A stretch of DNA of 59,540 nt, from assembly GCA_964522175.1 (NCBI GenBank), contig CAZFVC010000001.1:1-59540 (forward strand). Reading direction: 5' to 3'. The position numbers and the translations under genes are program-made. The notes under the pieces are model-generated. The model did not search any database and was not told the DNA's origin. It saw nothing but the letters and a program-made list of their open reading frames with translations. How positions within the stretch are numbered: position 1 is the first letter of the stretch; the number at the start of each line of letters is the position of its first letter. Shown in pieces: positions 22,578-55,012 of this stretch. This DNA comes from an uncultured Desulfurococcaceae archaeon. GTDB lineage: Archaea > Thermoproteota > Thermoprotei_A > Sulfolobales > NBVN01.

Positions 22578-23180
22578 ACGAGGTGTCCTAACTGTGGATG
22601 GGAAGATCTTGTGTGGGACTATGAGAGAGGGGATATTATCTGCCCAAAATGCGGAACTGTTGTGGAGAGAATTTATGTACCGCCAATTACCAGCAGAGAA
22701 GAGGATATTGAATTATTGAAACCATTTCGCCGGCCCCAGCCGAAGCTATCTAGGCTTTCTCGAGAGTATCTGCGCATACTTCACGAGATAAAGAGTAATA
22801 GGAGGCTGTCCTCGCGTGCTTACATAGATAGTGCGAAACTAATGGAGTTCGTTAAGGCCTCATCAAATAGGGTTAAGGTTATCAGGGTGGATCTTCCGAA
22901 ACCGGAGCTTTTGAAGGACCCTAAGATCAAAGCAGTGCTGAAGATTGTGGCTAAGTATCCTTCACTCCACTCCAGAACAGATAGGGCTAAAGTAGCTATT
23001 GCGCTGATCATGTCTTCACTGATTGAGAAGGGCCGAGTTAATGTGGGTGAGGTCTCACGCTCCACCGGATTAAGCAGGATGCATGTGAGGAGGCTTATAA
23101 GGCTTGTTAGTAGGGAAGCTTCCTTCCTTAAAGAGGCTGAGTATGTGCTGGCTAAGCCAGCACCTCTGGAGGGACCTTAA
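22578..23180 (+). CDS. Truncated TFB-like protein with a TFIIB-type zinc ribbon. The start codon is uncertain: ACG at 22578, or GTG at 22611.
   Basis: The in-frame sequence TRCPNCGWEDLVWDYERGDIICPKCGTVV matches the TFB ribbon pattern (CPxCG-x15-CxxCG). The track start (GTG at 22611) removes the first CxxC. A TAG stop sits at 22575, so only ACG and AGG precede the first Cys. A GGTGAT motif lies at 22568-22573. The C-terminus (VAIALIMSSLIEKGRVNVGEVSRSTGLSRMHVRRLIRL) looks like a single degenerate cyclin/HTH repeat. Confidence 0.6.
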   Translation, partial: TRCPNCGWEDLVWDYERGDIICPKCGTVVERIYVPPITSREEDIELLKPFRRPQPKLSRLSREYLRILHEIKSNRRLSSRAYIDSAKLMEFVKASSNRVKVIRVDLPKPELLKDPKIKAVLKIVAKYPSLHSRTDRAKVAIALIMSSLIEKGRVNVGEVSRSTGLSRMHVRRLIRLVSREASFLKEAEYVLAKPAPLEGP

Positions 23181-48818: not shown

Positions 48819-49574
48819 TTATGCCGCCCTGGGAGCCACCCACACCGTTATTTTCGAGCCGTCATCACTGGTGACAAGCAGCTTCATGGGGAGCCCTGCC
48901 CCGAACTCAACGGTTACCACATCACCTATGTCTAGGGAGGGGGCTACTGACTTAAGGAGGTCGATGTCGTACATGCTTGTCACGGCAGATTCCTTAGACT
49001 CCAGGCTTAGGAGAGGCTTATCAAGCTTCAGGACCTCCCTAAACTCCTTCCCCTCAGACCTTGAGGAGACCGTTACCTCACCCTCCTTATAGGAGATCTC
49101 GAGCTCTTCACCCACAAGCTTTGCGTCACTTATTATCTTCCTGAATTCCTCGGGCTCCATCTGCATCTTCACAGGCAGGTCGAGCTCAAGCGACTGAATA
49201 AGTTCCTGGCCGAACCCTATGACCCTGACCTGGTACGTTCTTTCGCTTCCTGTCTTGGTGTTTATGAGGCCCAGAATCATTGTCTCAGAGCCGTCCTCAT
49301 ACCTCAGCACGACAGTGTCTCTCTTAGTTCCCCTACGCACAGCCTTAAGGAACTCGTCCCTGTCCGCAACAACTTTAGTCTCGCCGGAAACATCATAGGT
49401 CTCGAAAGCCATGCTCGGTATGTAGACCTCAACCATAATGTTTTTGTCGGGGCTCAGCCCCCTAATGAGGAAGGAGTTCTCATCCGCCTTAATCGGCGCC
49501 TCACTCAAAGGCTTAAGCGATCCTTGAAGCATCTTCTTCAGTAATGAGCCGTCCGGGTACTTAACATTGAACAT
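48819..49574 (-). CDS. pcn: DNA polymerase sliding clamp (second PCNA paralog)
   Basis: 251 aa. It is PCNA-sized with a two-domain beta-rich pattern (LKKMLQGSLKPLSEAPIKADENSFLIRGLSPDKNIMVEVYIP ... MKLLVTSDDGSKITVWVAPR). Confidence 0.88.
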   Translation of the reverse strand: MFNVKYPDGSLLKKMLQGSLKPLSEAPIKADENSFLIRGLSPDKNIMVEVYIPSMAFETYDVSGETKVVADRDEFLKAVRRGTKRDTVVLRYEDGSETMILGLINTKTGSERTYQVRVIGFGQELIQSLELDLPVKMQMEPEEFRKIISDAKLVGEELEISYKEGEVTVSSRSEGKEFREVLKLDKPLLSLESKESAVTSMYDIDLLKSVAPSLDIGDVVTVEFGAGLPMKLLVTSDDGSKITVWVAPRAA

Positions 49575-49667: not shown

Positions 49668-50036
49668 ATGGCCAGGCTTGTCAAATCCTTCTTCGGATAT
49701 ATCTATCTCGAAGGCAGTGTTGAGGAGGCGGTTAAGGTTCTGGAGGCTATGAAGGAGCTTGGTAGGGAAACCGGGGATGTGGAGGATTCCTTAAGGATTC
49801 TCAGGAACTTCGACGCCTTCCAAGAGATGCTGCGGAAGAGGTTTAAGGAATTCATAGCTCCGAGGAAGAGTGAGCGGGACCTGATAATGGGTAGGGTGTC
49901 GGTGGATAAGCTGAGGCTCATTCGGAATGGTGGGGAGAGGAAGGTGGTTATTGTTTTCGATAAGAGGGTTCCTGAGGACGATGTTGTGGAGGCTTTAGAG
50001 AAGGCTGGAGTGGAATTTGAGCGGGCCGAAGAGTAA
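49668..50036 (+). CDS. Hypothetical protein (122 aa)
   Basis: Protein-like composition. Its stop codon directly abuts the stop of the convergent 141-aa gene (TAATTA). No family was recognised. Confidence 0.6.
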   Translation: MARLVKSFFGYIYLEGSVEEAVKVLEAMKELGRETGDVEDSLRILRNFDAFQEMLRKRFKEFIAPRKSERDLIMGRVSVDKLRLIRNGGERKVVIVFDKRVPEDDVVEALEKAGVEFERAEE

Positions 50037-50462
50037 TTATTTCTTCTTCTTGGCGCGTGTCTTCCCTTTACTCTTCCTAGATTTCTTGCTTGACTTGCTT
50101 GATTTAGCCTTCTTTTGAGCAGTCTTTTTCTTGCTTGCCTTCATCTCAGACCTCTTCTTAGATATGAAGCTCCTTCTAAGCTTCTTGATGTCGGCAATGA
50201 GTTTCTGAAGGCTCACATCCCGCCTTAAGGCCTGGGATAAAACATCGCTTATGTCAAGCATGGATTCTATGGCGTCAATATCTATGGCTCCCGGAACGAA
50301 CTTTATTTCGAGGTCCTCCTCAGCGGCGTAGTCTTCGGGGGCTTCCTCGGGAGGGACCTGTTCCTCACCTTCCTCAAGAAGCTTCACCATCTTCTCGGCT
50401 TTTTCCTCTTCTTCCTCCTCTTCGGCCTCAGGTATGGGTGTTTCTCTCTCTTCCTCTGTCAC
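50037..50462 (-). CDS. Hypothetical protein with an acidic N-terminus and a Lys/Ser-rich basic tail (141 aa)
   Basis: GTG start. The N-terminus is EEERETPIPEAEEEEEEEKAEK and the C-terminus is SKKRSEMKASKKKTAQKKAKSSKSSKKSRKSKGKTRAKKKK. An ATATAAA element lies about 35 nt upstream on this strand. It is 57 nt downstream of the HerA-like ATPase gene. Confidence 0.65.
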   Translation of the reverse strand: MTEEERETPIPEAEEEEEEEKAEKMVKLLEEGEEQVPPEEAPEDYAAEEDLEIKFVPGAIDIDAIESMLDISDVLSQALRRDVSLQKLIADIKKLRRSFISKKRSEMKASKKKTAQKKAKSSKSSKKSRKSKGKTRAKKKK

Positions 50463-50519
50463 TTAATCCCCTCTTTAAGGAGTAGTTATGACCCAGTAAT
50501 AAGTTTATATTTCTCTTCC

Positions 50520-52163
50520 TCAATAATTTTGTGTCTCGATAAGGGCTAGAAAGCCGTCCTCCCCCAGAATGAAGGCCTCACCCACACGCAGCGTGGGGAG
50601 TTTTCTCCTAACCTCCTTTTCCTTACCGGAAGGCCCTCCAAGCACCCTCGATATGTAGTTCAGCGAAGACTCCTCGAGAACCTTGAAGACCATGATTAGG
50701 GACGCGTTATTTAGGAGGGAGGGATTCACGGCTCCAGGGTCCTGATATATTGCTATGGCAGATATCCCGAGCTTCCTTCCCTCCCTGAAAAGCTTCCCCA
50801 TTATGTCTATACCTGAGCCTGAGGCTGTGAGCCTCTGCGCTTCCTCAATAACCACAAGCGTTGTTCTGGGAGCTGCCTTCCTTACGTAGAAAACCGCGTC
50901 AAGTACCGTGCGCATGATGAGTGTCTGGAGGGGAGGGCTCTCGACGTGTGATAGGTCGAAGAGGAATGACCCGTCACTTAACTCGCCGGGATCCATCCAC
51001 CTAACTAGGCTGGATCCCGCAATACTTGAGAGGTAGGGAAGGAGTGAGGAAATAACTTCCTTTCCGTAGGGGATATCACCGTAATCCCCTGACTTAACTA
51101 GTTCGAGGAGTGTTGATGGGTTCACTTCAGGCAGTTCCCTATATGCCTTAAGTAGTATCGCGTTTAGGGCGGCTCTCTGAACCCCTCCAAGCCTGTAGGC
51201 GTGCGTGACCTCTGAAGAAACCTCTTCGGCCCTAACCCCCGGTTCCTTGCCGAGTAAGGCGAAGGGATTTACCCTCTCAACAGACCCGTCCACTCTCCTA
51301 AACCCGTTTATGTCTCCGTACTCCCCATGTATATCAATAATTATGACAGGTATCCCGAATCCTTTAGCCTGCCTAGAGATCGCTTTAGCCGCCCGGGTTT
51401 TACCGGACCCTGAGGAGCCTATGAGGATCACATGGCTGTTCATGCCCAACCTAGGTCTGTAGCAGTAGATGCTTTTTCTGGAGGGCCCTGCATAAACCTT
51501 CCTAACCTTACCCACTATTATGCAGTCTTCGCCGATCAGGACAGCTTTGGTTTGCGGCGGTATGAGGGATGCTGAGAGCGGGAGAATAATGAATGAGAGG
51601 AGCGCTGACAAACCCCCAATAATAACTGTTTTGAGGTAGGGCTGGTTACCCCTTCCGTACACAGCCAGCGATGCAGCAAGAAGGCCTCCGGCAACATATG
51701 TTGCTCGTCCCAGCATTGACGCATGGGCCGGCGGGATCAGTGGAGACGCTTCAGTTAGGCCGCGGAGCAGAGAATATGAAACCAGGAAGATACCTGTCGA
51801 AGCCAGTAAGGCAGGTATGTATTCCTTGGGCTGGGTGGGTGGTAGCTTGGTTTTCTCGGCTTGTCTCCCTAGGGCAGATCCCCACAGGAATCCTCCGGCA
51901 TAGAGAACCGTTACTGCCGCAGCGTTCTGAATTATGTAGTTCGCAGATGCCCAGGGGGCCGTGTTGAGGGAGATCAACAGTAAAGCAATATACTCCAGAA
52001 GCCCTATGAGTAGGTCACGCCCCCTACCAGCTACATACCCCGATGCCGCCACAGCAACCCAAACAATTATGGGGGACGGGAGGCCCTGGCTGTAGGATAT
52101 GTAGTATATTGCAGCGTTCAGCATCATGAGCAGTGCCGATAATGTTACGCGTTCCCTTCGCAA
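50520..52163 (-). CDS. Membrane-anchored HerA/FtsK-superfamily (DUF87-like) P-loop ATPase
   Basis: 547 aa, TTG start. About 7 hydrophobic helices occupy residues 1-205. Then come Walker A (ILIGSSGSGKT, around residue 250), IIIDIHGEYG and Walker B (TTLVVIEEAQRL). No HAS-barrel-like N-terminus is present. Confidence 0.85.
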   Translation of the reverse strand: MRRERVTLSALLMMLNAAIYYISYSQGLPSPIIVWVAVAASGYVAGRGRDLLIGLLEYIALLLISLNTAPWASANYIIQNAAAVTVLYAGGFLWGSALGRQAEKTKLPPTQPKEYIPALLASTGIFLVSYSLLRGLTEASPLIPPAHASMLGRATYVAGGLLAASLAVYGRGNQPYLKTVIIGGLSALLSFIILPLSASLIPPQTKAVLIGEDCIIVGKVRKVYAGPSRKSIYCYRPRLGMNSHVILIGSSGSGKTRAAKAISRQAKGFGIPVIIIDIHGEYGDINGFRRVDGSVERVNPFALLGKEPGVRAEEVSSEVTHAYRLGGVQRAALNAILLKAYRELPEVNPSTLLELVKSGDYGDIPYGKEVISSLLPYLSSIAGSSLVRWMDPGELSDGSFLFDLSHVESPPLQTLIMRTVLDAVFYVRKAAPRTTLVVIEEAQRLTASGSGIDIMGKLFREGRKLGISAIAIYQDPGAVNPSLLNNASLIMVFKVLEESSLNYISRVLGGPSGKEKEVRRKLPTLRVGEAFILGEDGFLALIETQNY

Positions 52164-52237
52164 GGCGCTCTCACATCAGCATACTCATCAAGAGTATTAA
52201 GCCTTCTAAGAAGAAGATTTAGTGGTTCGGTCTAGAG

Positions 52238-55012
52238 ATGCTTAACGACAGGCTGAAGAAGGTTATGGAGGATGTGGGTATCCGGGAGCTGACCCCTGTC
52301 CAGTCGGTTGCGATACCTAAGGTACTCAGCGGCAGGCATGTCCTCATAATTGCGCCTACGGGAAGCGGGAAGACGGAAGCGGCCCTCCTCCCCATAATGT
52401 CTAGGATGCTTGATGTGGGACTTAAGTACAGGCCTGTCTGCGCCCTGTACATCACTCCCCTCAGAGCGCTTAACAGGGACATGTTCCTTAGGATTAGGAG
52501 GATTGGGAAACACCTAGGTGTGTCTGTCGCTATAAGGCATGGGGACACATCCAGCAGTGCTAGGAGGGCCATAGCCCTTAACCCTCCCCACATACTGATA
52601 ACTACGCCGGAAACCTTCACCTACCTCCTCGTGAATGAGGGGATGAGGAAGCACCTCACTAACGTTAGGTGGGTAGTTATTGATGAGTTTCATGAGTTAC
52701 TCGCCAGCAAGAGAGGGGCACACCTCCTAGCCGATTTAGAGAGGTTGAGGAGGATAGCAGGCCCGTTCCAGAGGATAGCCCTCTCAGCCTCGATAGGTGA
52801 CCCGCGGAAGGCTGCGGAGGCACTGGCTCCAGGAAAGTTTGTGGATATTGCTGAAGTCCCGGGGGTTAGGGAGGCCGACATAGGTGTTTACGCGCCCGGG
52901 GATTACGGCGGTGAAGTGAAGGATAAGGTGGATCTGATAGCTGAGCTTGTGAGGAAGTTTGGGAAAACCCTGATCTTCACCAACACCAGGGATGAGGCGG
53001 AGTGGCTTGGCAGGAAACTGACTGATAGAGGGCTTGATGTCAGGGTTCACCACGGCTCCCTCTCCAAGGCGTTGAGGGAGGAGGTTGAGGAGCTGCTTAG
53101 GGAAGGTGGGATACAGGCCGTTGTCTCGACCTCAAGCCTCGAGCTAGGTATCGACATAGGTCATGTCTCGGCAGTTATTCAGTCATCATCCCCTAGGCAG
53201 GCCAGTAAATTCCTTCAGAGGATCGGCAGATCCCTCCATAGGGTGGGGCTTAGGGCGAGAGGCTTCATAGTGACGGACCTGAACGGGAACGACATGCTTG
53301 AGTCTGTAGTTATAGCTAGGCGGACGAGGGACGGAGATATTGAGGAGGTGAGGCCCTACCTAATGCCTATCGATGTCCTTTCACATGTGCTCGTCGGTAT
53401 GGGGATGGAGGGCGAGGGATTCACCCCTAGGGAAGCCTTAGAAATCCTTAAGGCTTCCTACCCCTTCCTACACCTAGATATGGATATTCTTACAGGCGTT
53501 ATCGAGTTCCTAACCTCATTAAGGTACCTCAGGTTCGTTAACGGGAAATTCAGAACATCCATGAAGGGCAAGATCTACTACTACAGAACCACCATGATTG
53601 TGGACACAGTCCAGTTCCGGGTTATCGACGTGTTGAGTAATAGGGTAATTGGGTCGCTGGACGGAGACTTCGTCTCCATAAACCTTACTGAGGGTTCATC
53701 AATAGTTCTTTCCGGCAGGATGTGGAGGGTTGTCGGGATAGATGATGACAATAAGAAGGTTTTCGTTGAGCAATTCCCTGCGGAGGAGGCGTCCATACCT
53801 ACCTGGGTGGGGGAGAATATTCCTGTCGATTATAAGGTTTCTAGGGAGGCCTGCGGCCTGCGGAGGCTTATCGCTTTAGGCTACATACCTCAACACTACA
53901 GGGAGATTGCCTCACCTCAGCTGATTGAGTATGTTAGGAAGCTTATTGGTAGGCATGCAGGGAAGGGGTTCCCGATACCGTCCGATAGGGAGGTTGTTGT
54001 GGAGATTGTTTCAGGTAGGCAGACACTTATAGTGATTCATGCGTGTCTAGGTAGCCGCGGCAATAGAGGGCTTTCCTACGCAGTATCCACACCGCTTATC
54101 AAGTACCTCGGGGTTGAACCCAGGATCAAGATCGATCCCTACGCAATATATCTGGAGCTCCCTTACCAGGTTACTGCAGCGATAGTTAGGAAGCTGGTTG
54201 AGGAGGCACTTACGTCCAGGGATCCTGAATCCCTTATCAGGGAAGGGATATCTAGGTCATCCCTCATGAAGGCCGTTGCCTTCAAGGTTCTTTCAAGGCT
54301 TGGAGTTATCCCTAGGGAGGCCCCTCCACAGGTCGTTAAGGTGCTTGTGAATAGGTATGTTGAACACCCCCTAGTAAGGGAAGAGGTTTTCAGGGAGGTG
54401 TTCACTAGGTATGCTAATCCGGACCCAGTGATCGCCACCGTTGAAGGGATTCGTGAGGGGAAGGTTAGGCTTCGATTCATTGAGGTGAGTTCACCCTCAC
54501 CCATAGCTGAGGAGGGTATTAGGATAAGCGCGGGGTTCGACCGTGTTAAGGGAGGGAATCTTCCGAGGAACGTGGTTAGCGAGCTTGTGAAGAGGAGGCT
54601 TATGGGGCGTAAGGTGCGTCTCTACTGCATGGTGTGCGGTAATTCATGGGAGGCTGTCGTGGGCGAGCTTCCGGAGAGAATAGTTTGCAGTAAGTGCGGC
54701 TACTCCCTTGTCGCACCCTATTTCGGTAGGGAGGACCTCACACCGCTTGTTAGGAAAGGGCTTAAGGCGGGGAGGAGGTATAAGTTCGTTCTCAGCGGTG
54801 AGGAGAGGAAGAGGTTCGAGGAGTTGATGGAGGCTGCAGACCTTGTCCTAACCTACGGGAGGAGGGCTGTCGTGGCGTTAGCTGCTAGAGGTGTGGGTCC
54901 GAGGAACGCTAGGAGGCTCCTGACCGCTAGGGAGGACTCAGACTTCTATGTCCGTCTGCATGATGCTGAAAGAACATTCCTTAGGACTAGGAGGTACTGG
55001 AAGAATCGTTAA
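52238..55012 (+). CDS. lhr: Lhr-type superfamily 2 DEAD/DEAH-box helicase
   Basis: 924 aa. It has motif I (IAPTGSGKTEAALLP), motif II (VIDEFHEL), a helicase C domain (HHGSLSKALREEVEE, TSSLELGIDIG), a long C-terminal extension and a Zn ribbon (CMVCG...CSKCG). Confidence 0.9.
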   Translation: MLNDRLKKVMEDVGIRELTPVQSVAIPKVLSGRHVLIIAPTGSGKTEAALLPIMSRMLDVGLKYRPVCALYITPLRALNRDMFLRIRRIGKHLGVSVAIRHGDTSSSARRAIALNPPHILITTPETFTYLLVNEGMRKHLTNVRWVVIDEFHELLASKRGAHLLADLERLRRIAGPFQRIALSASIGDPRKAAEALAPGKFVDIAEVPGVREADIGVYAPGDYGGEVKDKVDLIAELVRKFGKTLIFTNTRDEAEWLGRKLTDRGLDVRVHHGSLSKALREEVEELLREGGIQAVVSTSSLELGIDIGHVSAVIQSSSPRQASKFLQRIGRSLHRVGLRARGFIVTDLNGNDMLESVVIARRTRDGDIEEVRPYLMPIDVLSHVLVGMGMEGEGFTPREALEILKASYPFLHLDMDILTGVIEFLTSLRYLRFVNGKFRTSMKGKIYYYRTTMIVDTVQFRVIDVLSNRVIGSLDGDFVSINLTEGSSIVLSGRMWRVVGIDDDNKKVFVEQFPAEEASIPTWVGENIPVDYKVSREACGLRRLIALGYIPQHYREIASPQLIEYVRKLIGRHAGKGFPIPSDREVVVEIVSGRQTLIVIHACLGSRGNRGLSYAVSTPLIKYLGVEPRIKIDPYAIYLELPYQVTAAIVRKLVEEALTSRDPESLIREGISRSSLMKAVAFKVLSRLGVIPREAPPQVVKVLVNRYVEHPLVREEVFREVFTRYANPDPVIATVEGIREGKVRLRFIEVSSPSPIAEEGIRISAGFDRVKGGNLPRNVVSELVKRRLMGRKVRLYCMVCGNSWEAVVGELPERIVCSKCGYSLVAPYFGREDLTPLVRKGLKAGRRYKFVLSGEERKRFEELMEAADLVLTYGRRAVVALAARGVGPRNARRLLTAREDSDFYVRLHDAERTFLRTRRYWKNR

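Follow-up and report, generated by a model that had tools for sequence, protein, structure and literature searches.

A membrane-embedded HerA-clade ATPase, distinct from HerA, CedB and CedD, in a conserved archaeal gene block next to aLhr1

Results and discussion

The stretch of DNA analyzed here (59,540 nucleotides; the window) encodes a 547-residue protein that combines a polytopic membrane domain of approximately 200 residues, a short linker and a complete HerA-clade ATPase in one polypeptide, and that is a paralog apart from HerA, CedB and CedD. Its family (Saci_0815/arCOG00285), from heat-loving crenarchaea, is uncharacterized and turned up in no group other than this class of Thermoproteota. 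We tentatively interpret the protein as an accessory motor for DNA, ring-shaped and seated in the membrane, with a role linked to Ced-type DNA exchange or repair (probability of about 0.4). The gene and the parts of its product are as follows:

50520..52163, minus strand: ATPase gene, 547 aa, HerA-clade, membrane-embedded (open reading frame and translation; TTG start)
51564..52163, minus strand: N-terminal membrane domain, residues 1-200 (hydropathy, AlphaFold2, conserved columns)
50523..51527, minus strand: cytoplasmic part, residues 213-547 (profile against PDB, Foldseek, NCBIfam)
51396..51419, minus strand: Walker A GSSGSGKT, residues 249-256 (translation)
50829..50855, minus strand: Walker B region VVIEEAQRL, residues 437-445 (alignment to the corresponding HerA motif)
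50766..50786, minus strand: REGRKLG motif, residues 460-466 (matches REGRKFG of Sulfolobus solfataricus HerA)

We re-read the open reading frames, motifs and spacers of the original prediction in the sequence and translations, and all are as it described them.

A membrane domain joined to a HerA-clade ATPase

Hydropathy gives six to seven hydrophobic segments within residues 1-200, and the AlphaFold2 model (pLDDT 87.4) contains seven helices (residues 3-24, 30-48, 51-68, 74-97, 112-139, 150-169 and 176-199), in keeping with the earlier estimate of about seven. Four intramembrane residues (N16, G42, E57 and P195) are conserved. The counts of lysine plus arginine in the loops of helices 1-5 agree with an N-in topology; because seven full crossings from such a start would put the ATPase domain outside the cell, helix 6 or 7 is presumably not a full span.

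In the cytoplasmic part, a short beta hairpin (residues 215-235) precedes the HerA-clade ATPase, which is of RecA type and carries an inserted helical domain. Pfam matches are DUF87 and TrwB_AAD_bind, and the best NCBIfam matches are CedD (65.6 bits, residues 243-532), HerA and CedB, each far under its cut-off. Profile comparison with PDB ranks S. solfataricus HerA (4d2i; E = 9e-31) first among solved relatives, and the other matches include DptH, antiphage HerAs, VirB4 (1e-7), TrwB (1e-5) and FtsK (3.5e-3). Foldseek with the model gives HerA 4d2i (2.3e-13), VirB4 4ag5 (2.8e-10; TM-score of 0.69, normalized to target) and DndH-C (7es4). Pfam, NCBIfam, the PDB profile, AlphaFold2 and Foldseek agree on a polytopic-membrane ATPase of the HerA/FtsK superfamily without a HAS barrel, as originally proposed, and the profile searches place the ATPase domain among the HerA-clade ATPases, with 4d2i best by both profile and fold.

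Among 28 orthologs, the Walker A residues G249, G252, G254 and K255, the catalytic Walker B residue E441, and E461, R463 and K464 of the REGRKLG motif are invariant; the residues of GSSGSGKT, DIHGEYG (residues 277-283) and VVIEEAQRL are invariant or nearly so. By analogy with HerA, R463 would be an arginine finger. Full-length orthologs are found in 22 of the 24 genomes of the family to which the organism belongs. Purifying selection acts on the gene: dN/dS against a genome of the same genus is 0.155 (0.25 for the membrane part and 0.10 for the ATPase part), as compared with 0.03-0.06 for the Lhr, serS and PCNA genes in the same comparison.

Relation to HerA, CedB, CedD and FtsK

In a paralog tree of five genomes, the window ATPase groups with Sulfolobus acidocaldarius Saci_0815 (record AAY80182.1; support 88/92; core 96/95), of which it is the ortholog, and CedB (94/97), CedD (97/98) and HerA (99/97) form clades of their own. 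This separate fourth clade is in keeping with one of two alternatives put forward originally, that of an uncharacterized family. The other, a CedA-CedB-like fusion, we reject: profile comparison finds no similarity between the membrane domain and CedA-like proteins (hhalign probability 0.13%), the clade is separate from that of CedB, and other contigs of the genome carry cedB-like, cedD-like, cedA1 and cedA-like genes. S. acidocaldarius carries CedB, CedD and Saci_0815 together.

CedD, like the 547-aa protein, is a HerA-clade ATPase bound to the membrane; it is about as long, occurs in the same taxa and is the top NCBIfam match, collinear over the ATPase domain. However, the score of 65.6 bits compares with a cut-off of 600, the clades are separate, and the same genome has its own CedD-like gene (contig C14, 218 bits). 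Sulfolobaceae CedD, moreover, has about two N-terminal membrane helices and then a soluble N-domain where the 547-aa ATPase has a seven-helix bundle, and the two N-termini share no profile similarity (hhalign 0.12%). CedB (Saci_0748; NF041017), the VirB4-like Ced ATPase, is likewise a membrane-anchored HerA/VirB4-type protein, and cedB-like genes lie 2-16 kb from the ATPase gene in several families; yet the 547-aa ATPase reaches only 35 bits where the cut-off is 700, falls in a separate clade, and coexists with a CedB-like gene of the same genome (contig C38, 165 bits).

HerA, the DNA-end-resection translocase of S. solfataricus, is the closest solved structure and shares the Walker A, Walker B, DxHGEY and REGRKFG-type motifs. 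It differs in its clade, in its orthologous group (arCOG00280, rather than the arCOG00285 of the ATPase family) and in its HAS-barrel N-domain, in place of which the 547-aa ATPase has the short beta hairpin and membrane domain. As first noted, no nurA, mre11 or rad50 lies near the ATPase gene, the neighbors being serS, an aminotransferase gene, thpR and cca. FtsK/SpoIIIE and VirD4/TrwB belong to the same superfamily and share the logic of an N-terminal membrane anchor with a ring ATPase, and the helical domain inserted in the ATPase, together with the TrwB_AAD_bind match, recalls the FtsK/TrwB-type pumps. In contrast, the sequence matches to TrwB and FtsK are very weak, the membrane domain is different, and the FtsK linker and gamma domain are absent.

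A conserved gene block

The ATPase gene stands in the following surroundings:

52238..55012, plus strand: aLhr1-type Lhr helicase, 924 aa (Pfam DEAD, Helicase_C, WH_Lhr, DEAD_assoc)
52164..52237, no strand: divergent intergenic region between the ATPase gene and aLhr1, 74 nt (sequence read directly)
50463..50519, minus strand: spacer between the ATPase gene and rpo13, 57 nt (sequence read directly)
50037..50462, minus strand: 141-aa protein, probable divergent Rpo13 (position and profile comparison; GTG start)
49668..50036, plus strand: uncharacterized gene between rpo13 and pcna, 122 aa (position conserved)
48819..49574, minus strand: PCNA sliding-clamp subunit, 251 aa, end of the block (NCBIfam PRK01115.1-1, 215.7 bits; Pfam PCNA_N)

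The Lhr protein shares 34% full-length identity with the product of the S. acidocaldarius gene that sits where Saci_0814 (aLhr1) is located. The order aLhr1, divergent ATPase gene, rpo13, 122-aa gene and pcna is found class-wide, Sulfolobus included: in 17 of 20 loci within the family, in nearly all remaining families of the order (S. acidocaldarius and Stygiolobus among them), and in three families of the class beyond the order. The head-to-head Lhr gene and the small downstream gene are conserved far outside the genus, which supports the original prediction; the "PCNA paralog" that it pointed out, together with many of the other gene adjacencies, is instead part of an old, conserved information-processing block, and the PCNA gene occupies the same slot as the PCNA gene beside rpo13 in Sulfolobaceae. 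The 122-aa gene, on the strand opposite to rpo13 and pcna, is kept in most loci outside Sulfolobaceae, and its product matches nothing in Pfam, NCBIfam or PADLOC. The neighborhood also contains genes unconnected with DNA transfer: rpo13, pcna, serS and a gene for a PAPS-reductase-like (PP-loop) Fe-S enzyme.

The 74-nt divergent region has an AT-rich GAGTATTAAG element at its center and may be a promoter region common to the ATPase gene and aLhr1. Within the 57-nt spacer, a TATA-like box (AAATATAAA), a putative promoter element, lies approximately 44 nt upstream of the rpo13 GTG start, and a GAGGGG motif approximately 8 nt upstream of it.

The downstream gene

The 141-aa, lysine-tailed protein is probably a divergent Rpo13, judging from its position and from profiles. 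Rpo13 is RNA polymerase subunit 13 of Sulfolobales and Desulfurococcales (SSO0396, Saci_0816; PDB 2WAQ, 7OK0; PMC2675907). Saci_0816 holds the matching position in S. acidocaldarius, in the slot between the ATPase gene and pcna, and both proteins have an acidic N-terminus, a helix-turn-helix core and a lysine-rich tail (with serine as well in the window protein). Of 20 loci in the family, 17 have a gene of the same build 3' of the ATPase gene, as do loci of other families and orders. The Pfam Rpo13 model (PF12136) matches 13 of 27 positional homologs, and hhalign of a family-only against a Sulfolobaceae-only profile for this position gives 92.6% (E = 4.7e-7). The window protein, in contrast, is longer (141 residues as compared with about 104) and very divergent, and by itself matches neither PF12136 nor Rpo13 in PDB. 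It is most likely a positional neighbor of the motor and not a subunit of it, rather than the dedicated basic-tail partner initially envisaged.

Distribution and association with Ced genes

Of 72 ATPase-positive genomes, 28 (from seven families) have cedA1 no more than 15 kb from the ATPase gene, and only one lacks a cedA1 match. The block is flanked in five families (f2, f3, f7, f11 and f16) by cedA1, which scores above the NCBIfam cut-off, and by cedA-like and cedB-like genes, and in one genome (G054) the ATPase gene, rpo13, cedA1, cedA and cedB follow one another on one strand. Five genera (g11, g22, g23, g29 and g47) have none of cedA1, CedB, CedD and the ATPase; the genomes of the lineages that lost the ATPase as well as Ced are small, and these losses amount to approximately three independent events only. 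Since cedA1 and CedD occur with no ATPase ortholog in families f4, f8 (12 of 13 genomes) and f9, Ced does not need the ATPase. A connection with Ced is plausible by neighborhood and cross-genome distribution. The ATPase is neither CedB nor CedD nor a CedA-CedB fusion, and a gene order passed down by descent could account for its closeness to the ced genes.

Losses of the ATPase are repeated (g11, g22, f4, f9 and most of f8 and f11); those in g11 and g22 are clean and leave Lhr and rpo13 in place. These losses, the non-essential score in Tn-seq of M164_1755 (arCOG00285; the positional counterpart in Sulfolobus islandicus, according to the Tn-seq supplement), and the dN/dS of 0.155 as compared with 0.03-0.06 point to an accessory, dispensable ATPase.

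Interpretation

In the mechanism that we favor, the ATPase would form a ring, probably a hexamer, at the cytoplasmic face of the membrane, as its relatives do, with R463 supplied by the adjacent subunit; ATP would power the movement of nucleic acid (most probably DNA) at the membrane or across it. The protein would act as an accessory motor within a Ced-type DNA exchange and repair network and might pass DNA to or from the aLhr1 helicase. Substrate, ring state and direction of transport are here those suggested by relatives.

It is possible, albeit somewhat less likely, that the conserved neighborhood is no more than inherited gene order and that the ATPase has a membrane job unrelated to aLhr1, Rpo13, PCNA and Ced, perhaps on a substrate other than DNA; this could be VirB4-like assembly or extraction of membrane or pilus proteins, or EssC/EccC-like protein export. 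The block is indeed made of unrelated housekeeping genes (rpo13, pcna, serS and the PP-loop Fe-S enzyme), collinear class-wide; Lhr and rpo13 remain after the ATPase is lost, Ced-positive f4, f8 and f9 do without it, and VirB4 almost equals HerA as a structural match. Yet an ATPase without cedA1 in just 1 of 72 genomes and the proximity of cedA1 in seven families (in G054 directly adjacent on the same strand) argue against inherited order only, and the nearest sequence relatives (HerA, CedD and DptH) work on DNA. A crenarchaeal counterpart of FtsK/SpoIIIE, a membrane-anchored pump clearing or segregating chromosomal DNA at cell division, would have a similar build and would suit a gene placed among information-processing genes; the NCBIfam matches include no ranked FtsK family. 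We consider this role improbable, given the repeated losses, the non-essential S. islandicus counterpart, the fast evolution, the very weak FtsK match, and a model with no long linker or gamma domain.

That the protein is the CedD or CedB of this organism, or a CedA-CedB fusion, is suggested by the top CedD match along the ATPase domain, but the low score, the separate clades, the better candidates on C14 and C38, the co-occurrence of all three proteins in S. acidocaldarius, the two-helix CedD and a membrane domain unlike CedA-like proteins amount to refutation. We hold it equally far-fetched that the ATPase is part of an antivirus defense system or mobile element, as many HerA-type ATPases are: PADLOC models for mad8 (73 bits) and HerA (69 bits) match the ATPase domain, and DptH/DndH are among the top structural matches, but the matches are limited to the generic ATPase core, the chromosomal site is fixed among core genes class-wide, and no effector partner (Sir2, DUF4297 or nuclease) is adjacent.

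Expression and regulation

Our literature search found no paper naming Saci_0815, SSO0395, SiRe_1604, Msed_0053 or arCOG00285. A speculative link to TFB3 gained no support: the candidate open reading frame at 22611-23180 has only a weak TFIIB zinc-ribbon match, and the list of unstudied UV-TFB3 iModulon genes in PMC11823120 does not contain Saci_0815. In a single RNA library of S. acidocaldarius, the 5' part of Saci_0815 is at approximately one-tenth of the depth of its neighbors, a weak indication based on contig depths.

Coding content of the locus

The four reading frames of the original prediction were recovered on ORF and translation checking, together with the two spacers, read from the sequence as 74 nt (52164-52237) and 57 nt (50463-50519):

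48819-49574 (-), PCNA ORF (pcna), 251 aa
50037-50462 (-), small lysine-tailed ORF, 141 aa
50520-52163 (-), ATPase ORF, 547 aa, TTG start
52238-55012 (+), Lhr ORF, 924 aa

The outer neighbours are serS, an aminotransferase gene, a 2',3'-cyclic phosphodiesterase gene and cca, and annotation of the neighbouring genes revealed no nurA, mre11 or rad50 near the ATPase gene, as had been noted earlier. The translated ATPase carries the motifs already reported for it, namely GSSGSGKT (residues 249-256), DIHGEYG (277-283) and VVIEEAQRL (437-445), and hydropathy places six to seven hydrophobic segments within residues 1-200, in line with the proposed hydrophobic N-terminus. The 74-nt divergent spacer holds one central AT-rich element (GAGTATTAAG), which could serve both directions.

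The ATPase gene is under purifying selection, with a dN/dS of 0.155 against a same-genus genome (0.25 for the membrane part and 0.10 for the ATPase part); Lhr (0.059), serS (0.061) and PCNA (0.031) have values lower by a factor of two and a half to five. Across an alignment of 28 full-length orthologues, the invariant positions are G249, G252, G254, K255, the stretch D277-x-H-G-E-Y282, E441, E461, R463, K464 and Q474, and the intramembrane residues N16, G42, E57 and P195 are also conserved.

A membrane-anchored motor of the HerA clade

Pfam recognizes DUF87 (the HerA central domain) in the 547-aa protein at 38.7 bits (cut-off 23.2), and the top NCBIfam model is CedD (65.6 bits against a cut-off of 600), followed by HerA and CedB, all far under their cut-offs. 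The profile made from the 28-orthologue alignment matches S. solfataricus HerA (4d2i) first in the PDB (E 9e-31), the REGRKFG of which aligns with REGRK in the family, then DptH and antiphage HerAs, and then VirB4 (1e-7), TrwB (1e-5) and FtsK (3.5e-3). An AlphaFold2 monomer model built with the same alignment (pLDDT 87.4) has seven predicted helices (residues 3-24, 30-48, 51-68, 74-97, 112-139, 150-169 and 176-199), which a linker of low confidence (204-212) joins to a beta hairpin (215-235); after the hairpin comes a RecA-type domain, into which a helical domain is inserted. Foldseek ranks HerA 4d2i first (2.3e-13), ahead of DndH-C (7es4), T. kodakarensis HerA, Sir2-HerA complexes and VirB4 (4ag5, 2.8e-10). 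The HAS barrel is absent, as anticipated, its place being taken in the model by the membrane helices and the short beta hairpin. The sequence elements of the FtsK-HerA superfamily are present, with Walker A (K255), the Walker B catalytic Glu (E441), a putative arginine finger (R463) and a sensor residue (Q474) on a RecA-type fold. Because domain matches, invariant residues, profile, model and Foldseek agree, we regard the ATPase half as a complete HerA-clade motor, and the profile search, one of the checks that the original prediction named, places it inside the HerA/FtsK clade. From the conserved arginine finger, which acts across subunits, we infer a ring; rings of this superfamily are usually hexamers with a central pore and move nucleic acid.

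The mean number of loop K+R residues over the 28 sequences is 2.0 for the N-terminus, 0.18 for loop 1-2, 1.0 for loop 2-3, 0.25 for loop 3-4 and 4.0 for loop 4-5, a pattern that fits an N-terminus inside the cell for helices 1-5. With the N-terminus inside, a cytoplasmic ATPase requires the chain to cross the membrane an even number of times, so that one of the last two helices (6 or 7) probably falls short of a full span; the full crossings would number six or seven. A word-indexed homologue search returned only two proteins; ESM Atlas returned DUF87 clusters only when queried with the whole protein, and no useful match when queried with the membrane domain alone.

A fourth paralogue beside CedB, CedD and HerA

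The assembly from which the window derives (1.30 Mb in 150 contigs, 95.5% complete) holds its own candidates for the components of Ced, the crenarchaeal DNA-import system: a CedD-like gene on contig C14 (347 aa, 218 bits, no membrane helices), a CedB-like gene on contig C38 (587 aa, 165 bits), and cedA1 with a cedA-like gene on contig C104. When all DUF87 paralogues of five genomes were compared by their ATPase domains, a maximum-likelihood tree resolved four clades: CedB (94/97), CedD (97/98), HerA (99/97) and a clade (88/92; core 96/95) containing the window ATPase and one gene from each other genome. Its S. acidocaldarius member is Saci_0815 (AAY80182.1, Q4JAJ7), annotated as 'conserved protein', 'ATP-binding protein' or 'DUF87 domain-containing protein', and the CedB and CedD of that organism are encoded away from it. 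Membership of the Saci_0815/M164_1755 family is supported by the tree, by a full-length profile match (the profile of 28 family members gives 245-330 bits to a single gene in each genome across the order) and by the position between aLhr1 and rpo13 (the helicase and small genes discussed below); the arCOG00285 label comes from the S. islandicus row at the same position (M164_1755), equated by position and annotation.

Three known identities could thus be set aside. CedD is rejected on the score against NF053655, the placement outside the CedD clade and the better paralogue on C14; CedB on 34.9 bits against a cut-off of 700 (NF041017), the placement outside the CedB clade and the CedB-like gene on C38; and HerA proper on the missing HAS barrel, the missing nurA, mre11 and rad50 neighbours, the separate clade and NCBIfam HerA models reaching 23-41 bits against cut-offs of 800-970. 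The suggestion that the protein is a CedA-CedB fusion did not hold, given the separate ATPase clade and a membrane domain that does not resemble CedA-like proteins at the profile level (14 membrane domains compared with 8 such proteins by hhalign, probability 0.13%); NCBIfam gave no match of the 547-aa protein to the CedA or CedE families at E <= 1. Sulfolobaceae CedD has an N-terminus with about two membrane helices, in contrast to the seven predicted here, and hhalign of that N-terminus with the membrane domain gave 0.12%. By these sequence comparisons the ATPase appears as a fourth paralogue, distinct from CedB, CedD and HerA, and among membrane-anchored HerA-type ATPases its family stands out as a variant in both architecture and phylogeny. 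The family is already catalogued (DUF87, arCOG00285); in the searchable literature we found no study of it and no paper naming Saci_0815, SSO0395, SiRe_1604, Msed_0053 or arCOG00285.

The small neighbouring gene is most likely a divergent rpo13

A small gene lies 12-58 nt past the ATPase gene in 17 of 20 loci of the window's family; its product has a conserved helical core between an acidic head and a K/R tail. One of the same build follows the ATPase gene in the other families and orders examined. At this position S. acidocaldarius has Saci_0816, which, like SSO0396, has been identified as the RNA polymerase subunit Rpo13 (Korkhin et al. 2009, PMC2675907). The PDB Rpo13 chains are reached by a profile of 27 positional homologues, although Sulfolobaceae sequences are in its alignment, so that the match is in part built in; of the 27, PF12136 recognizes 13. 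The 141-aa protein alone matches neither PF12136 in Pfam nor PDB Rpo13, and a profile restricted to its family has no PDB Rpo13 match; compared with a Sulfolobaceae-only Rpo13 profile, the family-only profile aligns over the HTH core with 92.6% probability (E 4.7e-7). The window protein and its close relatives are too divergent to match Rpo13 models singly. The gene is nevertheless a positional orthologue, and its product shows all three parts of the Rpo13 build, an acidic head, an HTH core and a basic tail. Because of the profile-profile match together with the identical position and build we read the 141-aa gene as most likely a divergent rpo13. The annotation of this lysine-tailed neighbour, missed by standard Pfam and NCBIfam scans, is corrected accordingly.

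Before the GTG start of rpo13, the 57-nt spacer contains a TATA-like box (AAATATAAA) and the motif GAGGGG, consistent with a putative promoter of its own. The notion of the lysine-tailed protein as a dedicated DNA-binding partner of the motor gives way to Rpo13, on position, profile match, this box and the persistence of the gene where the ATPase is lost.

A class-wide block with aLhr1

The 924-aa protein has the Lhr core domains (DEAD, Helicase_C, WH and domain 4 in Pfam) and is an aLhr1 orthologue, paired with the S. acidocaldarius gene adjoining Saci_0815 both as best match and by synteny. The aLhr1 name covers Saci_0814 and SSO0394, and deletion of aLhr1 renders cells sensitive to UV, 4-NQO, cisplatin and H2O2 (PMC10003305). 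In the family the gene order is serS, aLhr1, the ATPase gene head-to-head with it, rpo13, a 122-aa gene on the opposite strand, pcna and the aminotransferase gene; within this block the neighbours are 45-85% identical whereas the ATPase is only 24-37% identical. Across the order nearly every family shows the core (aLhr1 divergent from ATPase and rpo13, then pcna), with S. acidocaldarius (Saci_0814, 0815, 0816, pcna) and Stygiolobus as examples, and the core recurs in three further families of the same class that lie outside the order; the adjacency of ATPase, helicase and small gene, which the original prediction asked to be checked in relatives, is conserved class-wide. A comparison over all archaea that relied on TIGRFAM labels alone (Hajj et al. 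2021) reported no conserved neighbourhood for aLhr1, and we found no description of the class-level aLhr1-ATPase-rpo13-pcna block in the literature.

The 122-aa gene (49668-50036, +) is kept between rpo13 and pcna in most families of the class and is absent from Sulfolobaceae loci; its product has no Pfam, NCBIfam or PADLOC match. In genus g8 of the window's family (L041:8242-9873 and L042:8723-10384) the best ATPase match lies outside the block, without nearby Lhr, rpo13 or pcna, and may be a relocated ATPase or a different paralogue.

Distribution, losses and association with Ced

We searched 121 genomes of the order with the 28-orthologue profile and found one orthologue-grade match in each of 72 (about 165-690 bits, 530-700 aa). 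With this profile no orthologue was found in families f4 and f9 or in 12 of the 13 genomes of family f8, and outside the class about 170 genomes gave no match at E <= 1e-45, apart from one borderline case. Genera g11 (in the window's family) and g22, which are unrelated, have rpo13 head-to-head with Lhr and the ATPase gene missing (L117:8726-9106 and L119:10560-10904), and no cedA1, CedB or CedD was found in either. These losses indicate that the ATPase is dispensable in some lineages and that rpo13 is independent of it.

Co-occurrence of the ATPase gene and cedA1 in 121 genomes of the order
ATPase found: cedA1 found, 71; cedA1 not found, 1 (fragmented genome)
ATPase not found: cedA1 found, 33; cedA1 not found, 16

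The double-negative genomes belong to g11, g22, g23, g29 and g47, plus a few poor assemblies, and CedB and CedD were also not found in these five genera. The block is flanked in families f2, f3, f7, f11 and f16 by matches to CedA1 (122-127 bits, exceeding the cut-off of 100), CedA (125-168 bits) and CedB (72-217 bits). In f2 the ATPase gene is divergent from Lhr, which is followed by cedA1, cedA and a cedB-like gene, and one genome (G054) has ATPase-rpo13-cedA1-cedA-cedB on a single strand. Overall, 28 of the 72 genomes with the ATPase have cedA1 at a distance of 0.4-14.5 kb from its gene, and they come from seven families (f2, 9; f3, 1; f7, 5; f10, 9; f11, 1; f12, 1; f13, 2). The nested pattern fits an accessory part, useless without Ced and not required by it; because it reflects about three independent losses in small genomes, and because the block also holds unrelated genes, the link is suggestive and not proof.

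Transposon sequencing of S. islandicus M.16.4 (PMC6249222, supplement) lists M164_1753 (PCNA) as essential and M164_1754 (Rpo13), M164_1755 ('arCOG00285, COG0433, HerA helicase / ATPase AAA') and M164_1756 (Lhr) as non-essential. In one stranded S. acidocaldarius RNA library the 5' two-thirds of Saci_0815 (L053:8520-9561) has a depth of 3.5-6.8 against about 65 for Lhr and for the contigs spanning the 3' end of the gene, rpo13 and pcna, which is weak evidence because the figures are contig-mean depths (the contigs of the other three of four runs are flat); it hints at low expression of Saci_0815, perhaps with an rpo13 start site inside the ATPase gene.

Candidate role of the ATPase

The analysis shows what the gene is and how its product is built, to which clade it belongs, how far it is conserved and distributed, and that it is dispensable; its function can be considered on that footing. 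We propose that the ATPase would be a ring-shaped motor on the membrane that moves DNA, and that it may assist Ced-type exchange or repair as an accessory factor, perhaps jointly with aLhr1. In its strongest form, to which we give a probability of roughly 0.2, the Saci_0815-family ATPase, perhaps with aLhr1, would be a missing motor of crenarchaeal cell-to-cell chromosomal DNA exchange, encoded beside the ced genes since the class ancestor. It might then have a donor or export-side role, or it might be a third ATPase alongside CedB and CedD, by analogy with bacterial type IV secretion systems, which have three ATPases.

The neighbourhood might instead be merely inherited gene order, the substrate being unrelated or not DNA at all; the unrelated genes in the block favour this reading, the nested co-occurrence with cedA1 suggests a functional tie, and we hold inherited order to be a serious possibility, if still on the doubtful side. 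An FtsK-like division role, essential to the cell, is unlikely, weakened as it is by the repeated losses and the non-essential M164_1755. A defence system or mobile element was rejected: the position in the core genome is fixed, and the PADLOC models match the generic ATPase core only.

Ced/Ups is the best-studied route of archaeal chromosomal gene transfer and community DNA repair, and CedD and CedE were added to Ced only in 2024-25. The proposed motor bears on DNA exit from the donor cell, on DNA processing and on the number of motors that the exchange uses. It is a candidate as a third membrane-anchored HerA-type ATPase, almost confined to Ced-positive genomes and often encoded beside cedA1-cedA-cedB, and because, in nearly every family of the order, its gene stands head-to-head with that of the repair helicase aLhr1. 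Organisms amenable to genetics have members of the family, namely S. acidocaldarius (Saci_0815) and, judged by position, S. islandicus (M164_1755, SiRe_1604), and since M164_1755 is non-essential, knock-outs and mating assays should be straightforward, making the ATPase a concrete candidate, easy to test, for a component that archaeal DNA exchange still lacks.

Further genes of the window and of the Ced clusters

A 189-aa ORF of the window (22611-23180, +), previously called TFB3-like, has a weak TFIIB zinc-ribbon match (E 0.0056, residues 2-21). Regularly placed between the ced cluster and aLhr1 is a gene for a PAPS-reductase/PP-loop protein of about 660 aa with a zinc ribbon and a 4Fe-4S domain (L064:10591-12582, L043:3255-5201 and L112:9303-11276), which on contig C104 of the window's own genome (330-2147) directly adjoins cedA1. 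In another order of the class a CedB-like ATPase gene lies about 10 kb from the block and is followed by one for a conserved protein of about 175 aa (...IPIHAESYFIVERKG...; L112:3331-3864, L113:3191-3715 and L115:16559-17101). On contig C38 (L012:2713-9397) the CedB-like gene (587 aa) closes a row of four genes on one strand; the other three encode a FlaI/VirB11-like ATPase (423 aa) and 490-aa and 739-aa proteins without family matches, and the row may represent a Ced/T4SS-like cluster extended to include an ATPase of the VirB11 type.
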